NCBI GenBank assembly: GCA_965234725.1
Contig: CBDDUX010000025.1
Span: 1-26,433 of the forward strand
Direction of reading: 5' to 3'
Length of the DNA: 26,433 nucleotides
Source of the DNA: Thermoplasmatota archaeon
GTDB lineage: Archaea; Thermoplasmatota; Penumbrarchaeia; Penumbrarchaeales; Penumbrarchaeaceae
Each line of letters starts with the position of its first letter. Position 1 is the stretch's first letter. A model generated the notes under the pieces. The model did not search any database. It was not told the origin of the DNA and saw only the letters and a program-made list of their open reading frames with translations. The translations under genes were made by a program, and so were the position numbers. Of the stretch, positions 2,084 through 9,574 are shown one piece after another.

Positions 2084-2091
2084 TTTATATT
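2084..2091 (+). promoter_or_regulatory. Putative TATA box for small-gene module copy 1
   Basis: TTTATATT lies ~20-25 nt before the abrupt switch to GC-rich structured sequence at ~2111. Confidence 0.45.
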
Positions 2092-2134
2092 AATAGAGAA
2101 GCATCTTTTTACCACACCCGAGGCACCTGCGGTT

Positions 2135-2217
2135 GACCCCGGAACCATGTTCCGTTCCATCTGAACAGGTTCCAGAGCTTCCCGACGGAAGCATGGAAGG
2201 CGATGTCCATGGGGGTC
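2135..2217 (+). ncRNA. Candidate structured 5' leader (four-way junction)
   Basis: Closing stem GACCCC 2135-2140/GGGGTC 2212-2217 encloses three hairpins: GGAACC(a)TGTTC/GAACAGGTTCC (2141-2173), GCTTCC-cgac-GGAAGC (2177-2192) and ATGGA-aggcgatg-TCCAT (2193-2210). Confidence 0.5.
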
Positions 2218-2250
2218 CCCGGACAGCTATCTGAGTGAGGAGAGAGTAAA

Positions 2251-2409
2251 GTGAAAAAAGCAGCAGACATTGGAAAGATGAGGACTAAGATCTCATCCAT
2301 ACTGAAGGAATACCCCGAACTGGAGGAGATCGTGGAAGAGGTGAACGAGGAGCTCTGGGCGCTTGAGCTTGCCCTGGAGCTTGAAAACAAGAGGGGTGAT
2401 GAACAATGA
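2251..2409 (+). CDS. Small acidic helical protein A1 (52 aa, not in ORF track), paralog of 9090-9236
   Basis: GTG start after GAGGAG; translates to MKKAADIGKMRTKISSILKEYPELEEIVEEVNEELWALELALELENKRGDEQ. Its stop overlaps the next start (ATGA, 2406-2409). 25/48 identities to A2 by manual alignment. Confidence 0.85.
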   Translation: MKKAADIGKMRTKISSILKEYPELEEIVEEVNEELWALELALELENKRGDEQ

Positions 2410-2690
2410 TCCCCAAGAAGAGAAGATCGGAACCTGCCCTCATGAAGAGGATCAAGCGGGTCATCCACAAGATAAAACCGGACCAACTAGATCTTTCACC
2501 TGCCACTGTATTGGAACTCCTGGAGACCTGCGACAGACAGGACATCGATGTCCTTGAGATAGACTGGGAGGACAATGGAGAGACTACCAAGCATATTTCC
2601 ATAGAGGGGATTCCCATCGTCCTTTCGATCAAGCTGTCACATCTTCAGCACAGGATGGACCTGATAGGAAAAAAGTCAGTGTCCGAATGA
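2406..2690 (+). CDS. Hypothetical protein B1 (94 aa), paralog of 8828-9088
   Basis: RBS AGGGGTGA; translationally coupled to A1; 39/79 identities to B2 by manual alignment (KIxPDxLxLSPxTVxExLE...VLE...EDxGExTKHI...GIPxxLSIKxSH). Confidence 0.88.
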   Translation: MIPKKRRSEPALMKRIKRVIHKIKPDQLDLSPATVLELLETCDRQDIDVLEIDWEDNGETTKHISIEGIPIVLSIKLSHLQHRMDLIGKKSVSE

Positions 2691-2751
2691 ATGGAGCCCT
2701 ATGTCGATAAGAGATGTCGACACCTTGACAAGTATGGCAAGTACATGGATC

Positions 2752-2814
2752 AAGAGCTAATCGGGAGAATTACACATACAGAAAAATTTTTCTCCGGTGG
2801 CTCTTTTTCTTTTC
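2752..2814 (+). terminator. Hairpin-family element H (copy 2), terminator-like
   Basis: AAGAGCTAATCGGGAGAA (2752-2769) pairs imperfectly with TTCTCCGGTGGCTCTT, followed by TTTCTTTTC. It lies downstream of module copy 1. Confidence 0.5.
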
Positions 2815-2876
2815 AATCTTTTCTTATTGATAACTTAAAACAAAAAGTTTGAAAAATCTGCGATTATTCTAAGACC

Positions 2877-3270: not shown

Positions 3271-4569
3271 GTGAAAATGAAAAATGGAATATTATCAATC
3301 TGGCTGGTGGCCGTTCTCTTTATGATCGGCCTTGGAATGTTGATCATCCCATCAAGTGTGGATGCAGCATATACGGGAATAGTGACGATAAATGCCGATG
3401 GAAGCGTAACACCTTCCGATGCACCAATTATTGGTGAAGGAAAGAGCTACAAACTGACGGATGATATCGATGGCATGCTTGTGATTAAGAAGTCCAATAC
3501 GGGCGTTAACGGTATGGGATATGCCATCACAGGAGATGGGACAAATTATGGTATCCATCTTGACAACGTGAAGGGTGTGACTATCAAGAACTTCTACGTC
3601 TACGATGCCAAAGACGGAATATACTTGGAAGCATCCTGTAAATGCACCATCAAGGACAATACGGTAAGCGATTCCATCAGGTTCGGGATAACCGCATGGG
3701 ATGACTCGGATGGTAACACCATCAAGGACAATTATGTGACCGGTAACAACGCTGGAATAGCTTTGATATATGACAGCGACGAGAATGTGGTGAAGGACAA
3801 TACGGTTACCTATAACGGCTATGGCCTGGATACTTACCATTCCGATGAAAACATGTTCAAGGACAATATCGTTACCTATCATTCCATGTGGGGTATCAGT
3901 TTCAGGTTTTCCGGTGACAATGTTGCCAAGGATAATTATGTGGATACATGCAACGGGTTCGGTATCGGCATATATTGGGGGACAGGGGGCCACCTGGCAA
4001 AGAAAAATATTATAAAGAACTGTGGTGGGTCCGGTTTCCAGCTCAACAATGAAGGCGACATATTCGTCATGGAAAATGAGATCTACGACTGCTATATCGG
4101 GATCGGCTCTTGGTATACCTGGGATATTACTCTGAAATACAATTACATCACCGGAAGCTCCGTACCTGGGATATATATCGATACAGCAACTGGACAATAT
4201 GTCAATGGTAATGAGATCGTTGAAAACACATTCGGAATCTATTTCTGGAACAGTGATGAGACGTTGGAGTTTGACAATGTTATTACTTGCAACCTCATAG
4301 AGGGTAATGTTTACGGTATCTATACCGATGATTACACTTTTGGACCCTATATTGCTTACGATTGCGGTGGTAATACCCTGCACCATAACAATATCATCGA
4401 TAACATCTTCCAGGTCTACGAAGGTTTTGATAACATCTGGGATGATGGGAAGGGAGAGGGAAACTACTGGAGCGATTACACGGGTGAGGACACCAATGAT
4501 GATGGAGTCGGTGACACGATGCTTCCACACAATGGTGTAGATAATTATCCCCTTATGGAACAATGTTGA
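3271..4569 (+). CDS. Secreted right-handed parallel beta-helix protein (NosD/CASH-type repeats)
   Basis: RBS GAGGTGA; signal peptide ending VDA; repeated GIxL...NxIxxNxI units; C-terminal WDDGKGEGNYWSDYTGxDxNxDGVGD...DNYPL typical of archaeal NosD-domain proteins. No other nos genes are present. Confidence 0.88.
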   Translation: MKMKNGILSIWLVAVLFMIGLGMLIIPSSVDAAYTGIVTINADGSVTPSDAPIIGEGKSYKLTDDIDGMLVIKKSNTGVNGMGYAITGDGTNYGIHLDNVKGVTIKNFYVYDAKDGIYLEASCKCTIKDNTVSDSIRFGITAWDDSDGNTIKDNYVTGNNAGIALIYDSDENVVKDNTVTYNGYGLDTYHSDENMFKDNIVTYHSMWGISFRFSGDNVAKDNYVDTCNGFGIGIYWGTGGHLAKKNIIKNCGGSGFQLNNEGDIFVMENEIYDCYIGIGSWYTWDITLKYNYITGSSVPGIYIDTATGQYVNGNEIVENTFGIYFWNSDETLEFDNVITCNLIEGNVYGIYTDDYTFGPYIAYDCGGNTLHHNNIIDNIFQVYEGFDNIWDDGKGEGNYWSDYTGEDTNDDGVGDTMLPHNGVDNYPLMEQC

Positions 4570-4786: not shown

Positions 4787-6880
4787 CTATACCTGATCGA
4801 CTTGAAAGTCCAATTCCAGTTCCACTCCCTCATATTCTATCAAGATCCTATCCGAGTCAAACGGTGTTGTTGAATATGGATTGTCCCATCTCGGATAATC
4901 TCTCAGGGATATCTCCTCATTATTCACCTTCAAAGGTCCTGTCCAACCAAACTCTATCTTGCCTATTCCATCTGCATGAAATTCGATTTCCAGGTCATCA
5001 ACTTTCAACTTGGACCCTGATACATTCTCGATAAAATTACTGAAGTCACCATCGACCTCCTTTCTTCCCATGTGACAGACCCAGATATTCTCCCTTCCAA
5101 GTGCAACTATCTCCTGATCTGCATCGATACCTTCCGTCTGCCATTCATAAGGAAGGTGGGAATATAGAGCCACATAACCCTCATCTTTCCTCCCGAATAT
5201 CCATCCCCCACCGTCATCCGAAGGAACCTCTCTTACCTCATCGAAGGCCCATTTGGGGAAATATGCATGGGTGAAAGCATAATGCCTTGATTCCAGGATA
5301 TCTATGGATCTGTCTATCTTGTGAATAGCTATCAGTGTATTGTTAAACTGAGCTGTCCGTGGCATGCGGCCGTTGGAGAGCCAATACCCTGGCTTGTCCT
5401 TTTCATTCATTGAATCAGGATTGGTTACGTACACAACAGCATAAGGACCCAGAGTAGCCTGCCAAATATGCTGCTGGTAGCCTTTTTCCCCTTTTCTCCA
5501 TTCCTGAGCATTGCTCAGCATATAATCAGGAGTTCGATATGTTATCTTGTTTACCTCCGATAACAATACACCGTTTGAATCCGAACCAAGAGAAGCGCTT
5601 GCTTCTTCGAGGAGATCTAGTGCTTGAAGGACCTTACCGAGAGATTTGAAATCCTTGAAATCCGGATAATGCCACATCTTCCAATCATCCGCTCTTGTCA
5701 AGGTTTCATCAATTACAAGTGGATGGGTGAAACAACCCATTCCCCACCAAACAACGATATCATCAGATGATGAAAGACTCAGGTTCCTCTTCTTTGCTTC
5801 AGATTCGGTCATAGGTATTGAATGCCTTTCCCTGTTTATCATGACATCCGGCATGTCCAGAGCGATATTCTCGATTACTGGAGGAAGCGTATAATTGGAC
5901 AATGCCAGTGATATGACACCCATGCTTGTCTTGGAGTGGAATCTTCCCACCCCCCACATCAAGGCCTGAATGGACACCACAGGATCACTCCCAGAACTCT
6001 GGACGTTCTTTGCGGTTGATCTACCATGAGAAGTACCATAAATACCGTAGAAGGAATCGACTGCCATATCGAACATGATGAGGTCTATAATCGTTGATGC
6101 CTTTGCTGAAAGGTTCCTCGAGAAGTCCACAAGGTTGAGAAGTGCTGCAATATCCTCCGGATAATATGTGTTGGAATCCCATTCTGCAAATCCTATCTTG
6201 AACCTCCATTCTATCCATCTGAGGATCATCGGAAATGCATGTTCCATTCTCTCTATACCTGACATCCCGTTGTTTGTGAATATCTCGTTGGGGAACAGCT
6301 GTCCTGCAAGATATTCCGATGAGAATACCAGTATTTGATGATTCTCAGTCCACAGTTCCATGGCGCTTTTATTGGGATTTGGCTCGTCGAGCCAGTACTG
6401 GAATCCAAGTATAGCCTCCTTCACCGAATCCATTTGCGTTTGGGTGAGAACATCTCTGAAAGAGTAATACAAGCGAATCAGACCGGCCAATGTGAAATCG
6501 GCACAATCGTGTCTTTCCTTGACAAAGGTTGTCAGGTAATCCAGGGTATCAACAGGAAATTGGTCCTTACCGTTCTCGATCTTTGCAAGTTCGGTCCATA
6601 TAGAATCTCTGGACCCATTCGGTGTTGACTGGTTTGAAACCCAATCCAGGTATATCTGCTTCCGTCTCGAGAAATTGTTCTCGAAAGGTTGTTTGTGGAA
6701 AACAGGGTCATCGGGAGAAGGTCTGATGGGTTGTTGATCCCCGATCCTTGCGGATGGGAATTCGGGTTCCACATAGAAACTCTTCTTCAGCCTGACTGCA
6801 GCGATGGATGTGATGATTATCAGAACTAAAAATATTGCAAGTAATATCTTGTACTTTTTTTTCAATCTCTTCATCTCCAA
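4787..6880 (-). CDS. Membrane-anchored/secreted hypothetical protein, possibly heparinase II/III-like polysaccharide lyase fold
   Basis: 697-aa ORF (start probably ATG 6874) with a basic N-terminus and hydrophobic anchor. The helical N-half has WTENHQIL, GFAEWDSNTYY and GTSHGR; the C-half is beta-rich. The fold assignment is inference only. Confidence 0.75.
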   Translation of the reverse strand: MEMKRLKKKYKILLAIFLVLIIITSIAAVRLKKSFYVEPEFPSARIGDQQPIRPSPDDPVFHKQPFENNFSRRKQIYLDWVSNQSTPNGSRDSIWTELAKIENGKDQFPVDTLDYLTTFVKERHDCADFTLAGLIRLYYSFRDVLTQTQMDSVKEAILGFQYWLDEPNPNKSAMELWTENHQILVFSSEYLAGQLFPNEIFTNNGMSGIERMEHAFPMILRWIEWRFKIGFAEWDSNTYYPEDIAALLNLVDFSRNLSAKASTIIDLIMFDMAVDSFYGIYGTSHGRSTAKNVQSSGSDPVVSIQALMWGVGRFHSKTSMGVISLALSNYTLPPVIENIALDMPDVMINRERHSIPMTESEAKKRNLSLSSSDDIVVWWGMGCFTHPLVIDETLTRADDWKMWHYPDFKDFKSLGKVLQALDLLEEASASLGSDSNGVLLSEVNKITYRTPDYMLSNAQEWRKGEKGYQQHIWQATLGPYAVVYVTNPDSMNEKDKPGYWLSNGRMPRTAQFNNTLIAIHKIDRSIDILESRHYAFTHAYFPKWAFDEVREVPSDDGGGWIFGRKDEGYVALYSHLPYEWQTEGIDADQEIVALGRENIWVCHMGRKEVDGDFSNFIENVSGSKLKVDDLEIEFHADGIGKIEFGWTGPLKVNNEEISLRDYPRWDNPYSTTPFDSDRILIEYEGVELELDFQVDQV

Positions 6881-7425: not shown

Positions 7426-7464
7426 GGGCTAATCGACCGAGGCAATTCTGATGGCTCTATTTTT
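7426..7464 (+). repeat. Hairpin-family element H (copy 3)
   Basis: GGGCTAATCG...TGATGGCTCT followed by ATTTTT. The 5' arm GCTAATCG is identical to 2756-2763. Confidence 0.45.
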
Positions 7465-7515
7465 ATTCTGGTTAGAAACACCACCTTCGGAATTCGATCC
7501 TTCGGATCCGATCAT
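7459..7515 (+). repeat. 57-bp direct repeat R57, copy 2
   Basis: ATTTTTATTCTGGTTAGAAACACCACCTTCGGAATTCGATCCTTCGGATCCGATCAT; 49/57 identical to 2877-2933. Confidence 0.85.
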
Positions 7516-8827: not shown

Positions 8828-9088
8828 TCAAGCGAATGCGAGTTTCCTCATATTGTGTGAGAACTTGATAGATAATATTACAGGGATGCCCTTGAAACAG
8901 ATGTGCTTGGTGATCTCTCCGTCATCTTCCATCTCGAGTTCCAATACCTCGATTTCTTCTTCCTCCGCCTCCTCTAGGATCTCCATCACAGTGATGGGGG
9001 ATAGCTTCAGCTCGTCCGGATGGATCTTGTCGAGAACCTTCCTCATTTTCCTGACGAGTCTATCATTTTTTTTCATCTTAGCTATCAT
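8828..9088 (-). CDS. Hypothetical protein B2 (86 aa), paralog of 2406-2690
   Basis: Starts MIAKMKK at ATG 9088, 1 nt after the A2 stop, with RBS GGAGGT. The track's 20-aa N-terminal extension overlaps A2 in another frame and is rejected. Confidence 0.88.
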   Translation of the reverse strand: MIAKMKKNDRLVRKMRKVLDKIHPDELKLSPITVMEILEEAEEEEIEVLELEMEDDGEITKHICFKGIPVILSIKFSHNMRKLAFA

Positions 9089-9089
9089 C

Positions 9090-9236
9090 TCAATCAACCT
9101 CCTCCATCTCCAAAATAAGTTCGATCGCCCACAGTTCCTCATTCGCATCTTCCACGAACTCCTCGAGTTCGGGATGATCCGTTATCAGGGCAGAGAGTTC
9201 TGCCCTCATCGCTCCAATGTTCTTTGCTGAACTCAT
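9090..9236 (-). CDS. Small acidic helical protein A2 (48 aa, not in ORF track), paralog of 2251-2409
   Basis: RBS GAGGTGA; translates to MSSAKNIGAMRAELSALITDHPELEEFVEDANEELWAIELILEMEEVD. Shares PELEExVExxNEELWAxEL with A1. Confidence 0.87.
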   Translation of the reverse strand: MSSAKNIGAMRAELSALITDHPELEEFVEDANEELWAIELILEMEEVD

Positions 9237-9262
9237 CTTACTCACCTCTTTACGGGAAATAG

Positions 9263-9289
9263 GCAATTCCTCATCGCCAAGGAATGCTT
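9263..9289 (-). promoter_or_regulatory. Leader hairpin with TGGCGATG loop (module copy 2)
   Basis: Minus strand reads AAGCATTCCT-TGGCGATG-AGGAATTGC, homologous to AAGCATGGA-AGGCGATG-TCCATG at 2189-2211 with compensatory stem changes. Confidence 0.6.
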
Positions 9290-9574
9290 TTTTTCAGGTG
9301 ATTATAATATTGTATTGATATTATTAAATAAGTAGTAATAATTATACTTCAAAAATATCATTTATAATTCAGAAAAAAACTACATCAATAGTCTAAATAT
9401 TTTATTCGATAATTATATTAATTATTAATATCCGATCATTTGCCAGTTTCTTGACCTTCTCTATGCCAAAATTGAAAGATCATAGGCTAGATATTCTCTC
9501 ATATAGGAAAAATTCCTCAATTGAATAAGAAAGAAGTTGATAACTATTAAAACAATAATGATTCATAATAAATT

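Follow-up and report, generated by a model that had tools for sequence, protein, structure and literature searches.

A candidate operator hairpin with an invariant loop in the leaders of a small two-gene operon of uncultured Thermoplasmatota

The coat-protein operators of the phages MS2 and PP7 and the iron-responsive elements (IREs) exert translational control from the 5′ region of an mRNA, and each combines an invariant apical loop with a stem in which pairing is kept while the sequence drifts. In phage lambda, an arginine-rich α-helix of about 20 residues in the N protein reads the loop of the boxB hairpin base-specifically, and this helix reportedly recognizes a GNRA fold. To our knowledge, few cis-regulatory RNA elements have been described from archaea and almost none from uncultured Thermoplasmatota. 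In archaea, the L7Ae protein blocks translation of its own mRNA by causing a stem-loop in the leader to fold over the ribosome binding site (PMC6298567). The subject of the present analysis is a short hairpin with the loop W-GGCGAUG that precedes each of two copies of a small two-gene operon (genes A and B, together called a module) in a contig of 26,433 nucleotides (CBDDUX010000025.1 of assembly GCA_965234725.1), the whole of which is referred to here as the window. The contig belongs to a Thermoplasmatota archaeon represented by a 3.5-Mb metagenome-assembled genome (MAG) of 114 contigs that is 97.65% complete. An earlier note on this DNA had proposed that the hairpin is under selection for both its structure and its loop sequence.

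The archaeal hairpin has the pair of features that marks protein-binding operators of the boxB, MS2 and IRE kind, namely invariant loop letters on a covarying stem. It differs from the MS2, PP7 and IRE elements in its loop sequence and in the domain of life in which it is found. Moreover, the MS2 hairpin contains the regulated start codon, whereas the AUG in the archaeal loop is not the annotated start of gene A. With the boxB elements of phages lambda and P22 it shares a short hairpin, a purine-rich loop that may adopt a GNRA fold, and a stem of free sequence. In addition, the B protein resembles lambda N in starting with an Arg/Lys-rich helix (8–10 lysine and arginine residues in 22). However, boxB is a pentaloop that acts in antitermination on the nascent phage transcript, whereas the archaeal loop has 8 nt (or a tetraloop on two non-canonical pairs) and lies in an mRNA leader 33–54 nt before the start codon. 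The two systems are not similar in sequence, and B is a putative reader.

The L7Ae leader is likewise an archaeal 5′-leader stem-loop beside the ribosome binding site, and the regulatory logic proposed here is the same. Unlike that leader, the element has a single GA in place of tandem sheared G·A pairs with a 3-nt bulge, its stems are plain Watson-Crick helices, and the genes it precedes do not encode L7Ae. Leaders of ribosomal protein operons are also cis-regulatory structures, bound there by the product of the operon, as is conceivable for the candidate here; yet this operon encodes no ribosomal protein and the hairpin mimics no site in 16S or 23S rRNA. In gene organization, the modules resemble type II toxin-antitoxin operons, with two small overlapping genes (acidic then basic), a patchy distribution and up to two copies per genome, and A/B expression is presumably autoregulated as well. 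Unlike these operons, the modules gave no match to a toxin, antitoxin or defence family in the libraries searched, and in classical toxin-antitoxin systems the antitoxin autoregulates at a DNA operator rather than at an RNA hairpin.

Invariant loop and covarying stem

The module 1 leader reads AAGCAT-GGA-AGGCGATG-TCC-ATG at 2189-2211 on the plus strand, and the module 2 leader reads AAGCAT-TCCT-TGGCGATG-AGGA-ATTGC at 9289-9263 on the minus strand. Both are as the earlier note had recorded them, the stem of module 1 in fact being 6 bp long. The three pairs that close the loop are changed on both sides between the two modules, in agreement with the compensatory exchange described in that note, and the loops end at the distances it had given, 45 and 35 nt ahead of the start codons. 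RNAfold assigns the closing pair a probability of 0.94 in module 1 and 0.95 in module 2, and a covariance model (R1, below) scores the two hairpins at 36.0 and 34.7 bits, respectively. The word WGGCGATG is present at 183 sites on the two strands of this genome, and a stem of at least 6 bp accompanies it only at the two module sites. The remaining nine stemmed sites have 3–4 pairs, counting G·U, which is the rate found for 30 shuffled loop words. A chance origin of the hairpins in the window is excluded.

A search for B in 81 genomes (this one and 80 relatives) gave matches in eight, all from the same taxonomic family. The module is carried by 7 of the 23 other genomes of the family, with up to two copies each, and by none of the genomes sampled from other families. 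A metagenome scan with the A alignment yielded seven loci with four distinct new modules, the seven loci from a scan of genome contigs were all duplicates of known ones, and no relative was found in viral contigs. The comparisons reported here cover 14 distinct A/B modules, all from this one family of uncultured Thermoplasmatota. Left out were L017 and L018 (unrelated open reading frames (ORFs) with only a stretch of 19–27 residues in common), L014 (a duplicate of the L013 leader), and L011/L025, which is a leaderless fragment at a contig end. In that fragment, a larger ORF that presumably resembles DUF835-type proteins continues in frame into the C-terminal half of an A protein. Its translated A tail and B start are identical to those of L006, which is from another genome.

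The word GGCGATG is present 33–54 nt before the start of gene A in 10 of the 14 modules, and all seven of its letters are fixed in the ten carriers. In an ungapped alignment of 36 columns anchored on the loop, the stem occurs in six versions, TGGA/TCCA, TCCT/AGGA (four related loci), CCC/GGG, CGGA/TCCG, CGGT/ACCG and CGAA/TTCG. Next to the loop, all three pairs obey Watson-Crick rules in nine of the ten carriers, and at each of the four inner pairs there are four sequences changed on both sides. Paired cells amount to 76.7% of the total as compared with 44.8 ± 5.2 in shuffled alignments, and the covariation score is 0.763 as compared with 0.240 ± 0.066; neither value was reached by any of the 500 shuffles, a control that ignores relatedness. 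When the partners were slid by 1–3 columns, the score was at most 0.333. RNAalifold, unprompted, returned the same four pairs, and the closing pair has a probability of 0.62–1.00 in nine of the ten full-length leaders. The earlier claim of selection on structure and loop sequence is thus borne out, and the homologues show the fixed loop together with the covariation that the note had suggested looking for among them. The element is very probably a real, selected structured RNA.

Some details of the earlier description hold only for the two leaders from which they were drawn. The loop, AAGCAT and GAGTAA had all been listed as retained pieces, and among these it is the loop that persists. In the homologues, AAGCAT is replaced by AAGCCT, AAGTCT, AAGCCC, GAACCG and others, and because of this variation it represents no more than part of the stem and its flank. 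GAGTAA likewise is not retained in the homologues, where only the purine-rich Shine-Dalgarno (SD) sequence persists. The remainder of the leaders had been called unalignable, which is correct in part, as a TATA-like box and a CAC(A)CCYGA box are common to both leaders upstream.

The loop itself has a possible internal structure. In all ten carriers, GCGA occupies loop positions 3–6 and fits the GNRA pattern. RNAfold pairs G2·U7 and U1·G8 inside the loop of the variants that begin with U, leaving GCGA, and in the three carriers with A at position 1 an A·G would take the place of the U·G pair. These features allow a reading of the loop as a GNRA-type GCGA tetraloop above G·U and U·G or A·G pairs. 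Because the letters never vary, these G·U and W·G pairs are beyond the reach of covariation analysis.

The element occurs only in front of A/B modules in the genomes scanned. R1, which was built from the 36 alignment columns, finds the two modules alone in this genome, the next match having 17.0 bits (E 0.17). Among 24 genomes of the family, all seven matches of at least 30 bits are known A/B modules, and the 13 weaker matches inspected (up to 26.1 bits) each lie under an open frame of at least 206 aa with no A-like gene downstream. In a sample of the phylum (151 genomes), none of the 135 genomes outside the family reaches 30 bits; the best match there has 27.7 bits, and the four extra-family matches inspected are under open frames of at least 344 aa. 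The search for a regulon suggested in the earlier note hence produced no further copies, and a regulon is rejected. Since the element is tied to a single operon, autoregulation fits better than control by a global factor. Among the weaker matches, L039 has a perfect 8-bp hairpin (1501-1536; G013:C63:5497-5532) whose loop, AAGCGATG, is one letter off the motif. It is located inside an 840-aa frame and is probably a chance occurrence (26.1 bits).

In a tree built from A and B together, the nine hairpin-bearing modules with complete genes are separated from the four hairpin-less modules (L007, L010, L016 and L009) by one branch, for which support is weak (76/81). As the tree splits the two groups, the hairpin appears to be a trait of one subfamily. 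Both types are present in genome G008, with a hairpin in front of module L008 and none in front of L010. Three of the hairpin-less modules (L007, L010 and L016) have a leader of their own about 100 nt before gene A, with a GGAGCG...CGCUCC closing helix and a variable interior. In L009, the CACCTAAGAAAAA box is kept and a different hairpin is present.

Leader geometry and a candidate reader

A TATA-like TTAATA(N) word lies 23–27 nt before the CAC(A)CCYGA box at eight loci (L001–L006, L012 and L013). Archaeal promoter geometry would place the start of transcription in this box, and from the spacing of these promoter words the hairpin would be located inside the 5′ leader. The spacing between box and loop ranges from about 22 to 86 nt, and that between loop and start codon is 33–54 nt. 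Being near-constant relative to the start codon and variable relative to the promoter, the position of the hairpin seems to be set by the start of translation, which argues for action at the RNA level. A second conserved block is present upstream of the proximal TATA-like box (2051-2079 in the window, and at L003, L005, L006, L012 and L013). In this block, a distal word like CTTAAATAA precedes GTA(A/T)AAGA and the palindrome-like sequence GG(G/T)(T)(A/C)CC. The block may be a DNA-level operator or a B recognition element (BRE).

In sequence, the CAC(A)CCYGA box is similar to the 3′ end of the 16S rRNA of the same genome (...GGATCACCTCCT). In module 2, the box and the A that precedes it have AUCACCU in common with this 3′ end and can pair with the SD sequence AGGUGA; the minimum free energy fold of that leader pairs UCACCU with AGGUGA. 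Leaders fall into short ones (L002, L003, L004, L005 and L012) and long ones, which include L006, L013 and, as the longest, L001. In the short leaders (~65 nt), the box is predicted to pair with the SD sequence AGGTG(A), which would turn the entire leader into a single extended hairpin capped by the conserved loop. For the long leaders L001, L006, L008 and L013, multi-branch folds around the hairpin are predicted. Outside the loop, the 5′ box and the SD sequence are all that long and short leaders have conserved in common.

Protein B offers a candidate for the factor that reads the loop. In the nine hairpin-bearing modules with a complete B gene, the 22 residues before a conserved proline include 8–10 lysines and arginines and have a net charge of +7 to +9 in every case. 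The same segment in all four hairpin-less modules has 3–6 such residues and a net charge of +2 to +3. This correlation is suggestive, no more. An AlphaFold2 model of B contains a helix at residues 11–23, within a block over residues 11–30 that has a predicted local distance difference test (pLDDT) score of 83–85.

The element is probably a sequence-specific operator hairpin whose candidate reader is the B protein of the same operon, acting through its Arg/Lys-rich N-terminal helix. In the mechanism we propose, the 5′ leader RNA of the operon contains a stem-loop under selection, in which a Watson-Crick stem of 3–6 bp and free sequence would present the invariant loop W-GGCGAUG. B might read the bases of this loop with its N-terminal helix, and its binding would stabilize the fold of the leader. 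In the short leaders, this fold would be the single long hairpin whose base pairs the 5′-terminal CACCU with the SD sequence AGGUG. Such a fold would mask the SD sequence, so that binding might lower the translation, or alter the stability, of the mRNA of the operon itself. The transcription of the hairpin, its binder and the sign of the effect are what we infer; the hairpin, its invariant loop, the covariation of its stem and its exclusive link to the A/B operon are observed. The explanation as a whole, from selected leader operator to B as its reader and an effect on its own mRNA, is tentative, and we give it slightly less than an even chance of being correct.

Several points weigh against this explanation. 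The placement of the hairpin downstream of the transcription start is deduced from promoter geometry. The basal CACCU/AGGUG helix is invariant in the five short leaders and so is neither supported nor refuted by covariation; its prediction depends on the exact 5′ end and is inconsistent in the long leaders. Whole-leader folding energies are ordinary (z of −0.59 to −1.17, not significant), and the covariation derives from about six independent stem variants, with relatedness left out of the shuffle control. One carrier, L015, keeps the loop word but is A-rich where the 5′ strand of the stem is expected and has no adjacent stem. The earlier note had named a lack of the hairpin in homologous modules as a reason to doubt its proposal, and while ten of the 14 modules carry the loop word, the other four, which form the sister subfamily, are without the element. 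The correlation between B charge and the hairpin amounts to one contrast, not 13, because the A+B tree needs a single change. B has no RNA-binding domain recognizable with the family libraries, its structural model is only moderate (pLDDT 67.1), and a Foldseek comparison of the model with the PDB gave no match at E ≤ 0.001.

A more elaborate version of this mechanism would make the module an archaeal counterpart of N/boxB, in which the helix of B shuts off its own translation and the acidic A protein mimics nucleic acid and titrates B. We regard this as unlikely, and that A could antagonize B at all is speculation. If true, such a circuit would be a form of RNA-level, ratio-sensing autoregulation with toxin-antitoxin-like logic, in which two protein families and one RNA family are all new. 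More generally, the element is short (20–25 nt), has a sharply defined invariant loop and clear compensation, and belongs to a single orphan operon, which makes it a tractable system. A function for two orphan protein families and a new RNA-peptide recognition pair may be within reach of one binding assay. If B is the reader, a compact orthogonal RNA tag could be made from the hairpin-B pair; otherwise, the element would indicate a new RNA-binding factor in this lineage. The narrow range of the element (one family, ten carriers) limits its general impact.

Known motifs and rival explanations

No known motif was recognized in the earlier note, and Rfam 15 gives the same answer. There are no matches in the 26.4-kb window at gathering thresholds, and at E values up to 10 the two leaders give only noise (at most 16.5 bits). 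Text searches of the literature for the loop word and for archaeal or Thermoplasmatota leader RNA motifs found no description of the element among the papers listed, judged by titles and the starts of abstracts. The RNA motif is absent from Rfam and from these searches, which is not proof that it is unpublished.

Individual classes of known elements were rejected on more specific grounds. A k-turn or L7Ae site does not fit, as the invariant WGGCGATG has one GA only, with no second conserved GA opposite, and its flanks are Watson-Crick and variable. The element does not precede an l7ae gene, as A and B have no match above cut-off in Pfam or NCBIfam. For type II toxin-antitoxin systems, Pfam, NCBIfam, PHROGs and PADLOC likewise gave no match of A or B to a toxin or antitoxin family above cut-off. 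Faint matches to C/D box sRNAs on module 2 arise from GCGATGA, the best of them scoring 16.5 bits against a gathering score of 35, and module 1 has none. The letter after the AUG belongs to the variable stem, and GAUGA is consequently present in only five of the ten carriers. A riboswitch is not consistent with short leaders that form a single hairpin of ~65 nt and in which the seven loop letters are the only invariant ones outside the 5′ box and the SD sequence. A terminator of the upstream gene is not consistent with the location of the element downstream of a promoter-like block. Lastly, a leader peptide or upstream ORF (uORF) would have 6–11 codons or run into A. The candidate peptides show no relationship to one another, L012 has a shifted frame, and the stem strand ahead of the loop differs among carriers.

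With these classes set aside, the rival explanations differ mainly in what would act on the element. An RNA operator could be read by a trans-acting factor encoded elsewhere, in which case A and B would not be binders. The factor might be an RNA-binding protein of the host or a nuclease, or the loop might pair with a small RNA. Structure and loop conservation are silent on the binder, A and B lack any known nucleic-acid-binding domain, and the coexistence of both leader types in G008 is in keeping with this idea. However, there is no second copy of the element in the 24 family genomes, and a dedicated factor would thus serve a single small operon. A small-RNA partner is not apparent either, because on both strands of this genome no hairpin presents the complementary loop word except in the modules themselves. 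Likewise for rRNA, the 16S and 23S genes are both assembled in this genome, neither has GGCGATG or its complement, and R1 finds nothing in them, from which it follows that the element is not a mimic of an rRNA site and that its whole loop does not pair with rRNA. We consider a trans-acting reader unlikely. Alternatively, the hairpin might be a structural module with no dedicated binder, either a GNRA-capped 5′ stem-loop that protects against decay or a tetraloop that docks in a larger fold such as a riboswitch or thermosensor. Although GCGA fits the GNRA pattern in all ten carriers and the long leaders L001, L006, L008 and L013 are predicted to be multi-branched, a plain GNRA loop would tolerate changes at N, at R and in the closing pair, whereas here seven fixed letters top a stem full of changes. 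Furthermore, the short leaders of ~65 nt have no room for a receptor or aptamer, and nothing but the 5′ box and the SD sequence is conserved between long and short leaders outside the loop. These points render a purely structural role distinctly unlikely.

Two further proposals are less probable again. The AUG of the loop might be a functional start codon, for a short upstream frame or for an alternative long form of A, that controls A/B expression. This AUG never changes among the ten carriers, and each of the five long leaders has it in the reading frame of A (45, 54, 51, 51 and 51 nt). No stop codon interrupts this frame before A in L006, L013 and L015. In L002, L003 and L005, a 10-codon frame from the loop AUG ends in the SD word AGGTGA, an arrangement that could couple termination to re-initiation. 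Against these observations, the encoded peptides are not conserved and range from 6 to 11 codons or are fused to A, a one-base indel shifts the frame of L012 relative to L003, and in L001 and L008 the frame ends at a TGA. The long leaders show just three different spacings, which makes the in-frame pattern statistically weak. An SD-like word at a fixed upstream distance is lacking because the 5′ strand of the stem is free to vary, and the proposal leaves the invariant GGCG and the stem covariation unexplained. A uORF or alternative start is consequently a minor rival, and an improbable one. The element could instead act as DNA a short distance past the promoter, either as a transcription-factor operator or as a cruciform or single-strand hairpin that belongs to a mobile element. 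The apical stem is entirely Watson-Crick, so either strand could form the hairpin; the conserved promoter is close by; and the module is patchily distributed (7 of 23 other family genomes, up to two copies). Double-strand operators keep their half-sites, though, and here the arms vary but stay complementary around a fixed, asymmetric centre, at a distance from the promoter that varies about fourfold. The extended stem of three short leaders uses U·G, which on the opposite strand is an A·C mismatch. No mobile-element gene flanks the modules, L003, L006 and L013 have the same downstream neighbours, and the viral contigs yielded no relative. Action as DNA is therefore very improbable.

The modules and their surroundings

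The features of the two modules in the window, which lie on opposite strands, are collected in Table 1.

Table 1. Positions of leader elements and genes of the two modules in the window
Feature	Position	Strand	Remarks
Module 1 proximal TATA-like box ATTAATAG	2089..2096	+	TTAATA(N) word kept in 8 loci
Module 1 CACACCCGAG box	2113..2122	+	probable transcription start region, from promoter geometry; anti-SD-like
Module 1 leader hairpin	2192..2211	+	6-bp stem CATGGA 2192-2197 / TCCATG 2206-2211, 8-nt loop
Module 1 loop AGGCGATG	2198..2205	+	GGCGATG invariant; readable as A·G + G·U + GCGA tetraloop
Module 1 purine-rich SD sequence GAGGAGAGAG	2237..2246	+	complementary to 16S 3′ end
Gene A1	2251..2409	+	52 aa, acidic, GTG start at 2251, no known family
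Gene B1	2406..2690	+	94 aa, basic N-terminal helix, ATGA overlap with A1, no known family
Module 2 proximal TATA-like box TTTAATAA	9321..9328	-	putative promoter element
Module 2 TCACCTGA box	9294..9301	-	probable transcription start region, from promoter geometry
Module 2 leader hairpin	9263..9287	-	stem GCATTCCT/AGGAATTGC, one bulged T, 8-nt loop
Module 2 loop TGGCGATG	9279-9272	-	8 nt
Module 2 SD sequence GAGGTGAG	9241..9248	-	before ATG at 9236
Gene A2	9090..9236	-	48 aa, net charge -12, ATG at 9236
Gene B2	8828..9088	-	86 aa, start one base past A2 stop

Across modules, A proteins have 48–57 aa and are very acidic, with a net charge of −11 to −18 in eight of the ten hairpin-bearing modules, −6 in L001 and −1 in L008. 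The B proteins have 86–97 aa and a strongly basic N-terminal helix. Between the two modules of the window, the identity of A1 and A2 is 25/45 (56%) and that of B1 and B2 is 39/79 (49%), close to the figure of about 50% in the earlier note. A profile of nine B sequences, run with full HMMER against 1.84 billion representative proteins, finds only four proteins with E ≤ 0.001, of which three have E ≤ 1e-10, and a word-index protein search finds two relatives. A search of the ESM Atlas gave a best score of 0.82 and no lead. Prediction of an A-B complex from the two alignments scored 0.02, which offers no support and no verdict, and no conclusion is drawn from it.

The modules of the window and their homologues are surrounded by ordinary genes, which encode TFB, a NosD-like protein, an MFS transporter, a permease, a GNAT acetyltransferase and a cation-efflux protein. 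Genes typical of mobile elements, such as those for a transposase or an integrase, were not found beside the modules, and the downstream neighbours shared by L003, L006 and L013 are the same across genera. An AT-rich gap of ~0.9 kb (1189-2050) separates the TFB gene (301-1188) from module 1; it contains no ORF of at least 80 aa and gave no Rfam or tRNA match. A 53-aa ORF with no family match follows directly after the B1 stop (2691-2852, plus strand) and has no counterpart after B2 or after B at the other loci. Further downstream, a 57-nt direct repeat, 86% identical between its copies, is present at 2877-2933 and 7459-7515 on the plus strand, and these are the only two copies in the genome. 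The repeats flank a 4.5-kb segment that carries the gene for the NosD-like β-helix protein (3271-4569) and a 697-aa orphan ORF (4787-6880, minus strand), and the pair could be the footprint of an insertion or duplication.

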